Sequence record: OK272487.1
Source: Escherichia phage JLBYU09
Length of the DNA stretch: 48,988 nt
Direction: 5' to 3' (one strand)
Below, in pieces: positions 43,473 to 44,588 of the stretch (positions are counted from its first letter, which is position 1; every line of letters starts with the position of its first letter). The translations under genes were made by a program, and so were the position numbers. Below the pieces are notes generated by a model. That model was given only the letters and a program-made list of their open reading frames with translations. It was not told where the DNA came from and ran no database searches.

Positions 43473-44588
43473 ATGAAGCAAATCAAAATCACAGATGAAC
43501 AATTTATCAATGAGCGCAAGCAGGGAAAGACATATAAGCAGATCGCTAGTGAGTATGGCATGAACGTTCGCAGCATTGAGCGACGCGCGGCACGATTAGC
43601 AAAGCAGGGTAAAGTTACAACCATCGGATCACCTGGTTTTGGTGTTACTGGAGAATCAAAGCTAATTGATAAAGATGGCAATGTGGTTATGACATGGATT
43701 AAGACAAGCAAAGACCGCGAACAGTTAGAAGCATTAATGCAGGCCGCTATGGATGCATTTAGCGAAGAAGTTCCGCGACTTGATCCGCAGCCAGAATCAC
43801 AAAAGGATTATAGCGAGACGTTATCACTGTATCCGATCTTTGACATGCACTTGGGCGCAATGGCGCATAAGCATGAATGCGGCGAGAATTGGGATACAGC
43901 AACAGCAGAGCGCGTAATGAATAATTTCATTGATTATTCCATCCAGTGCGCGCCGGATAGTGAAAAAGCTGTTTTGCTGATTGGTGGTGATATGCTTCAC
44001 AGCGACGGACTGGAAGCGGTGACACCTGCAAGCGGTCACGTATTAGATCAAGATAGTCGATACGCAAAACTTGTTTATGTTGCCATCCGGTCAGTGCGTC
44101 GAGCAATCACAAAGCTGTTATCAAAACACAAAAACGTCGAGATTCAGATTATTGAAGGAAACCACGACCAAAGCGGCATGATCTGGTTGCGCGCAGCAAT
44201 GGCGGCAGCGTATGAGAATGAGCCGCGAGTGCATGTTGATGTGTCTCCGCGAGTGGTTCATCACACACAATATGGCAAAACATTCCTGGCATACCATCAT
44301 GGGCACACTATCCGCAAGCCTGAAACATTGCTCATGATGTGTGCGGCAGACTGGCGCGAAGACTTCGGAAATTCAAAAATGATGTATGCTCACGTAGGGC
44401 ACTGGCATCATCAGACAGTAACTGAAACAAGTCTGGGCATTGTTGAAGTGCATAGCACTATGGCGGCAAAAGATGCATATGCGGCGCGCGGTGGATGGCG
44501 TTCTCGTCGCCGTGCGGCTGTTATTGTTTATGATAAAGAATACGGAGAAGTAGGTCGATTTATGCATTATCCAGAAATGGCTGGTTGA
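43473..44588 (+). CDS. HTH / calcineurin-like metallophosphoesterase fusion (SbcD/Mre11-type motifs)
   Basis: N-terminal HTH (KTYKQIASEYGMNVRSIERRAARL); phosphoesterase motifs FDMHLG, GGDMLH, EGNHD, HHGH, GHWHH; AAGGAGAA RBS. Confidence 0.55.
   Translation: MKQIKITDEQFINERKQGKTYKQIASEYGMNVRSIERRAARLAKQGKVTTIGSPGFGVTGESKLIDKDGNVVMTWIKTSKDREQLEALMQAAMDAFSEEVPRLDPQPESQKDYSETLSLYPIFDMHLGAMAHKHECGENWDTATAERVMNNFIDYSIQCAPDSEKAVLLIGGDMLHSDGLEAVTPASGHVLDQDSRYAKLVYVAIRSVRRAITKLLSKHKNVEIQIIEGNHDQSGMIWLRAAMAAAYENEPRVHVDVSPRVVHHTQYGKTFLAYHHGHTIRKPETLLMMCAADWREDFGNSKMMYAHVGHWHHQTVTETSLGIVEVHSTMAAKDAYAARGGWRSRRRAAVIVYDKEYGEVGRFMHYPEMAG

Follow-up and report, generated by a model that had tools for sequence, protein, structure and literature searches.

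The calcineurin-like phosphoesterases share a beta-sandwich fold and five motifs, DxH, GDxx(D/H), GNH(D/E), H and GHxH, and include several proteins with which a phage-encoded member can be compared. Mre11/SbcD has a capping domain and C-terminal Rad50-binding helices and is partnered by the Rad50/SbcC ATPase clamp. Archaeal PolD DP1 is a 3'-5' proofreading exonuclease with an OB-fold domain, and is accompanied by the catalytic subunit DP2. Ligase-associated PdeM and the Pseudomonas putida MPE (PDB 6nvo) are stand-alone phosphoesterase nucleases that lack a Rad50 partner, and lambda NinI (lambda protein phosphatase) is a phage-encoded phosphoesterase from the lambdoid early region, with the PPP-type signatures GDxxDRG in motif II and GNHE in motif III. 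In phages the closest described group is PHROG 704, 'DNA repair exonuclease', and the T1 ortholog of the protein described here is ST16 (YP_003929), which RefSeq has also renamed 'DNA repair exonuclease'.

A phosphoesterase gene of this group in a T1-like phage

We analysed a window of 48,988 nucleotides, the whole stretch of DNA from Escherichia phage JLBYU09 (OK272487.1), which is a T1-like phage genome. Over bases 43000-45500, which include the target gene, the identity to Escherichia phage JLBYU41 (OK272479; Drexlerviridae, Tempevirinae, Hanrivervirus) is 100%, and there are many relatives at about 97% identity. The target gene lies in an ORF spanning 43470-44588 on the + strand, with the ATG at 43473 that is also the start chosen in GenBank, and is the last gene of a same-strand block, the members of which have Pfam-supported identities:

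39356-41443, + strand: SF2 helicase (Pfam)
41430-41849, same strand as the target: VRR-NUC nuclease (Pfam)
41924-42625, same strand as the target: Dam methylase (Pfam)
between the Dam methylase and the target gene, same strand: three small ORFs
43395..43423, + strand: sigma-70-like promoter candidate TTGTTA-17 nt-TATGAT with TG extension, 50 nt 5' of the coding sequence (promoter scan, consensus match only)
43459..43464, + strand: Shine-Dalgarno sequence AAGGAG, 8 nt 5' of the ATG, read directly off the sequence
43473..44588, + strand: coding sequence of the HTH-metallophosphoesterase, 371 amino acids plus stop (ORF list and database matches)
44632..44664, + strand: intrinsic terminator, GGGCGTGGCATTTTGCTTCGCCC then TTTTTTTATT (RNA fold -14.6 kcal/mol, z -3.4)
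44735-45839, after the terminator: holin-endolysin-spanin cassette

The promoter candidate is a doubtful one, because its region is not conserved between the window, T1 and Klebsiella phage H02. The terminator stands between the target gene and the lysis cassette, and T1 has an annotated terminator at the equivalent place, 3' of ST16. Interspersed patches of N (masked sequence) break several ORFs in the window, including the tail-fibre region and a small ORF after the spanin gene, and leave the target gene untouched; examples are 1481-1569, 3004-3023, 3867-3886, 6018-6044, 8717-8740, 9122-9142, 37122-37219 and about 45900-45960.

The target protein matches PHROG 704 over almost its entire length (E 1.9e-151, residues 5-370 on profile positions 3-389 of 390), and is 100% identical to JLBYU41_77 (OK272479), labelled 'putative phosphoesterase' in GenBank, and 57% identical to ST16. 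We found no difference from these described members, which belong to the same family and hold the same place ahead of the lysis cassette. The same PHROG contains homologs from Jerseyvirus, Dhillonvirus, Rhodobacter phage RcRios, Vibrio phages and Campylobacter Fletchervirus. Nearly all Drexlerviridae have the gene in their core, as do Jerseyvirus and Dhillonvirus, all of them virulent siphoviruses. A profile search of 1.84 billion cluster representatives, clustered at 50% identity, retrieved 5180 relatives at E <=1e-3 and 1292 at E <=1e-30, and by tblastn the protein was found in 2042 of 50,697 phage records. The family is thus very common and conserved, yet its name 'DNA repair exonuclease' is a label based on homology only. 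Other public names within it are 'phosphoesterase', 'winged helix-turn-helix domain-containing protein', 'transcriptional regulator', 'oxidoreductase' and 'DNA polymerase II small subunit', and a literature search on T1 gp16, PHROG 704 and the HTH-phosphoesterase architecture found no functional or experimental work. Catalogues and annotations already cover the protein and its domain make-up, and what is presented here is the correct reading of a known gene, not a discovery.

A scan of bacterial genomes for relatives gave a single locus, on a T1-like contig in a Nitratidesulfovibrio assembly. Near-identical T1-like genomes, with about 56-92% protein identity, have been deposited as Campylobacter phage A131 (MG065665) and Streptococcus phage MBBL140, and one is found inside the Nitratidesulfovibrio liaohensis assembly; the likeliest explanation of such records is that T1-like coliphages contaminated the cultures or the sequencing runs, and not that these organisms are the true hosts.

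Domain architecture, active site and fold

The gene had first been described, from its sequence alone, as a fusion of about 60 residues with a sigma-region-4 or LuxR-like HTH to an SbcD/Mre11-type phosphoesterase carrying the complete set of calcineurin-like motifs. Overall, this observation was confirmed, and the interpretation placed on it was supported in part. We aligned the protein with 122 homologs, which are 30-90% identical to it, and from this alignment and the predicted structure the following features were delimited:

43494..43604, + strand: N-terminal three-helix HTH domain, residues 8-44, DEQFINERKQGKTYKQIASEYGMNVRSIERRAARLAK
43638..43763, + strand: beta-hairpin (residues 56-80) and helix (82-97), part of the catalytic core module, with near-invariant G69 and W75 (AlphaFold secondary structure)
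43818..44567, + strand: metallophosphoesterase (calcineurin-like) catalytic domain, residues 116-365
43839..43856, + strand: motif I FDMHLG, residues 123-128, D124 and H126 invariant
43983..44000, + strand: motif II GGDMLH, residues 171-176, bridging D173 invariant, H176 (as in Mre11 GDxxH) 97%
44022..44060, + strand: family-specific loop TPASGHVLDQDSR, between motifs II and III
44157..44168, + strand: motif III GNHD, residues 229-232, N230 and H231 invariant, D232 92%
44295..44306, + strand: motif IV HHGH, residues 275-278, H276 invariant, G277 98%
44397..44411, + strand: motif V GHWHH, residues 309-313, G309 and H312 invariant, H310 97%

All five superfamily motifs are present, exactly where they had been placed in the sequence-only reading, and none of the metal ligands has been lost or substituted: D124, H126, D173, N230, H231, H276, G309 and H312 are invariant in the 122 homologs, at least 90% of which also retain H176, H310 and D232, so that the active site is intact and under selection. 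Between motifs II and III the homologs share a loop with the consensus TPxSGHxLDxDxR (residues 184-196), in which T184 is invariant and L191, D192, D194 and R196 are conserved in at least 90%; to our knowledge, this loop has no counterpart among the canonical phosphoesterase motifs.

At the N-terminus, a three-helix bundle with a helix-turn-helix is present, so that the HTH itself stood; its assignment to the sigma region 4 or LuxR type did not. All Pfam HTH matches of the window protein are under the cut-off, and the homologs spread over HTH_1, Sigma70_r4_2, HTH_8, HTH_28, HTH_23 and GerE, the best values among the 122 being 1.5e-9 for Sigma70_r4_2, 2.4e-8 for GerE and 2.6e-7 for HTH_8, such that no single HTH family can be assigned at the Pfam cut-off. 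The domain is best described as a generic three-helix HTH, and the label of sigma region 4 specifically is unjustified. At least 45 residues precede the catalytic core in 120 of the 122 homologs. A Campylobacter phage homolog without the HTH covers PHROG 704 profile positions 78-389 and retains the hairpin and helix, and because such HTH-less homologs keep both elements we assign these to the catalytic module.

The full-length AlphaFold model is confident (pLDDT 93.9, pTM 0.79) and has the beta-sandwich phosphoesterase fold. Foldseek placed T. maritima Mre11, PolD DP1 and M. jannaschii Mre11 at the top ranks, with TM-scores of about 0.4, and judged from this model the closest solved structures are nucleases, by a small margin. 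At the sequence level the relationships are more distant. The window protein does not reach the gathering score of Pfam PF00149 (14.1 bits, cut-off 21.5, E 0.063), which is matched at E <=0.01 by 31 of the 122 homologs (best 7.2e-6), and the family is a divergent branch of the calcineurin-like metallophosphoesterases. A tie to solved structures by sequence was considered and dropped: a single-sequence phmmer search of the PDB gave no match for the target protein, and the family profile against PDB sequences gave only non-significant matches, those to SbcD/Mre11 having E-values of 0.14-0.55.

The SbcD/Mre11 designation has the fold neighbours, by that small margin, in its favour and no significant sequence similarity. 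Moreover, only 58 residues follow motif V, which leaves no room for a capping or Rad50-binding domain, and neither of these was found in the target protein. The absence of an SbcC-like ATPase partner nearby, also noticed at the outset, was corroborated, as no Rad50/SbcC gene is found among the ORFs of the window nor in the T1 and JLBYU41 annotations. In terms of sequence, the protein does not count as a member of Mre11/SbcD, in comparison with which it has in addition the N-terminal HTH and the family-specific loop. From DP1 it differs as well, with only 14% identity and with a two-strand hairpin plus helix in place of the OB-fold; neither an OB-fold nor a DP2 subunit was found, and the T1 annotation contains no DNA polymerase gene. 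The protein resembles PdeM and MPE in being a phosphoesterase that stands alone, but the matches are weak and lie around the GNHD motif (TIGR04123, E 3.8e-4; 6nvo, E 0.59), spanning about 30 residues and scoring far under the family cut-off (19.9 vs 150 bits), and the HTH belongs to the target protein, whereas PdeM has none.

The precedent of NinI, like the target a phage-encoded calcineurin-like phosphoesterase, raises the alternative of a substrate other than DNA, i.e. nucleotides, cyclic or oligonucleotide second messengers (as in anti-defence), or proteins as in the case of NinI. We regard this as unlikely. The PPP-type protein phosphatase signatures of NinI are absent from the target protein. 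A role in defence or anti-defence, the latter among the first suggestions made for this gene, was rejected, as PADLOC gave no match and the gene is core rather than accessory.

Gene neighbourhoods and the proposed function

The neighbourhoods of the family vary between lineages. A homolog with 66% identity is found in lambdoid prophages of 35 of 5426 complete E. coli genomes, where it sits between a gene for an initiator-like HTH protein and that for the DnaB replicative helicase, 18 nt 5' of dnaB, with a zinc-finger/T5orf172 gene sometimes inserted before it. The prophage HTH-phosphoesterase, labelled 'hypothetical protein' by PGAP, thereby occupies the usual helicase-loader slot in an unusual replication module. 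In one metagenomic phage the family gene comes after genes for a PD-(D/E)XK nuclease, an ssDNA-binding protein and DNA polymerase A, and in Campylobacter phage F336 the HTH-less form adjoins genes for DNA ligase, a contextual likeness to PdeM, and a Holliday-junction resolvase. These three contexts point to DNA replication or recombination.

Four observations, namely the motifs, the nearest folds, the HTH fusion and the neighbouring genes, lead us to infer a mechanism in which the protein would be a two-metal phosphodiesterase (probably using Mn2+ or Mg2+) of the nuclease-type branch of the superfamily, alongside Mre11/SbcD and the PolD DP1 proofreading subunit. The substrate would be DNA, on which the enzyme would be kept by its small N-terminal HTH, substituting for the Rad50/SbcC clamp. 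Encoded among phage DNA-metabolism genes, it would act as an exo- or endonuclease that trims or cuts the DNA of intermediates in phage replication or recombination. A possible task is to make ends, flaps or hairpins usable in two processes that T1-like phages rely on, RecE/Erf recombination-dependent replication and the formation of concatemers. In our view, this HTH-tethered, Rad50-independent two-metal DNA nuclease is a tentative proposal, to which we give somewhat less than an even chance. If true, this would be a compact design for DNA processing, an Mre11-like active site held in place by an HTH and independent of any Rad50 clamp.

The prophage arrangement also allows a more specific function, in replication initiation or helicase loading, with the HTH reading the origin and the phosphoesterase domain nicking it or recruiting the replicative helicase. 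A loose analogy is offered by the phosphoesterase-fold B subunits that scaffold replisomes. However, this reading rests on synteny in one lineage only, the gene being far from the replicative helicase in most lineages; no origin or iteron was identified beside the gene, and versions without an HTH exist, all of which make it rather improbable. There is a similarly slim chance that PHROG 704 as a whole is a Rad50-independent, HTH-guided nuclease of the Mre11/DP1 kind that thousands of siphovirus lineages use as a core factor of replication, perhaps by nicking of sites or origins or by recruitment of the helicase. If so, T1-like phages would have in it their missing initiator or loader, and in some lambdoid prophages it would stand in the lambda-P slot. 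With an invariant active site, and with an initiator-like gene and DnaB on either side of it in E. coli prophages, the family offers an inexpensive, well-defined subject for biochemical work and for gene knockouts in T1-like model phages, e.g. those of the BASEL collection.

The same prophages weigh on the possibility of a host-takeover nuclease, which would degrade the host chromosome, shutting the cell down and supplying nucleotides, as such virulent phages do. The breakdown of host DNA by T1 has been described by classical genetics, and the nuclease-like fold neighbours and the core status of the gene in the virulent Drexlerviridae, Jerseyvirus and Dhillonvirus would fit such a function; nevertheless, the 66%-identity homologs lie in the replication module of temperate prophages, bulk degradation needs no sequence-reading HTH, and in the window we observed no mechanism by which phage DNA would be spared, the mark of the phage Dam methylase being that of the host enzyme. 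We thus consider host takeover rather unlikely.

A further set of neighbours is found at the late genes. The PHROG 704 gene lies 0-4 genes from endolysin or holin, upstream or downstream, in 9 of the 13 unrelated lineages examined. In Dhillonvirus its neighbours are the lysis genes on one side and, directly 3' of it, the small terminase gene, which is the position of the HNH packaging cofactor gp74 in HK97. This has suggested a late-acting nuclease tied to packaging or lysis, which might for instance aid terminase cleavage or clear unpackaged DNA at lysis. However, lysis cassettes are common at the early/late junction, so the adjacency may just reflect genome layout, and between the target gene and holin the window has a terminator. 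In addition, the gene is not near lysis or terminase genes in prophages, Jerseyvirus (where it stands alone within the tail module) and Campylobacter phages, and we consider a packaging or lysis function very unlikely.

Finally, a partnership with polynucleotide kinase in RNA or DNA end healing had been prompted by reported neighbouring kinase genes and an RtcB neighbour. This was dropped because the neighbouring 'kinase' of Klebsiella phage H02 is a HAD-type PNKP phosphatase, such that the 3'-phosphatase is already supplied. The gene in question (vB_Kp_H02, 5580-6646), annotated as 'polynucleotide kinase', adjoins the PHROG 704 exonuclease gene and really encodes a HAD-type PNKP phosphatase domain (E 4.9e-18); next to it a separate P-loop protein is encoded, and together the two would form a split Pnkp.

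A 19-bp box in Drexlerviridae

The window contains an asymmetric 19-bp box, TTTAACAAAAAGTGCTATT, in 13 copies at <=3 mismatches, compared with 0.03 expected, and a degenerate core, TTTARCAA-N3-RTGCTAT, in 15 copies. The relevant features are:

1832, 2709, 4863, 6131, 7435, 8801, 17268, 21028, 31846, 38840, 39327, 41845, 42886, 46133 and 48300: copies of the 19-bp box or its core
42886..42904, - strand: box copy nearest upstream of the target gene, the + strand reading AATAGCACTTTTTGTTAAA, with CATAAT about 20 nt further on
38841-39314, - strand: Cro/YdaS-like HTH protein (Pfam)

Eleven of the 13 copies give AATAGCACTTTTTGTTAAA when read on the opposite strand; about 19-21 variable bases, often forming a hairpin, come next, then a -10-like hexamer and, after a conserved leader, the beginning of a gene, and these 11 copies precede non-structural genes. 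The centre of the box lies about 42 nt 5' of the inferred transcription start, and no -35 element is present. The copy at 42886..42904 may serve as a promoter element of the small ORFs preceding the target gene. T1 has at least 20 copies of the box and the Klebsiella T1-like phage H02 has 14, and a literature search on the box sequence found nothing relevant.

These boxes bear on the idea that the protein is a transcription factor, with a sigma-region-4/LuxR-like HTH on promoter DNA, be it the boxes or the promoters of late or lysis genes, and with the phosphoesterase as an effector or sensor module. The spacing of at least 13 boxes of the window, about 42 nt before inferred starts of non-structural genes without a -35 element, agrees with this idea, as do the Sigma70_r4_2 and GerE matches in the family and the location of the gene directly 5' of the lysis cassette in Drexlerviridae and of the small terminase gene in Dhillonvirus, places that are often held by late-gene activators. 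Against it, conservation of the recognition helix within the family is poor while the catalytic site is invariant, some members have no HTH at all, and the box promoters drive early-looking genes, which must fire ahead of any phage protein. Moreover, the box occurs in the window, T1 and H02, and is absent from the Jerseyvirus and Dhillonvirus genomes and E. coli prophage loci, all of which carry homologs with 46-66% identity and a similar HTH. Hence we judge a transcription factor decidedly improbable. The narrower suggestion, made from sequence, of a regulator of the conserved boxes did not survive. No box was found directly 5' of the target gene in an enumeration of the window; with the box in the three Drexlerviridae genomes examined and no co-occurrence with the protein family elsewhere, the target protein as box regulator was rejected. 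As a feature of Drexlerviridae the boxes are real and of interest, but nothing ties them to the target protein.

A more ordinary candidate for binding the box would be the Cro/YdaS-like protein, because a box lies inside its own 41-bp divergent control region. In this region (39315-39355), between the Cro/YdaS-like gene and the SF2 helicase gene, the box fills nearly all the space and abuts the ribosome-binding site of the regulator, an arrangement that looks like an autoregulatory switch.

Two copies are inverted in the late structural region, at 17268-17286, just 5' of the major capsid gene, and at 21028-21046, 5' of the gene after the major tail protein. Both have equivalents in T1 (15069 and 18833), conserved in position and orientation, which suggests a second role of the box in late-gene control. 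Another repeat, unrelated to the T1 box, was noticed in Dhillonvirus Oekolampad, where the 12-mer AAAGCGGGACAG is repeated in two tight, iteron-like clusters (11389-11582 and 39457-39495) that could be an origin or a regulatory array.
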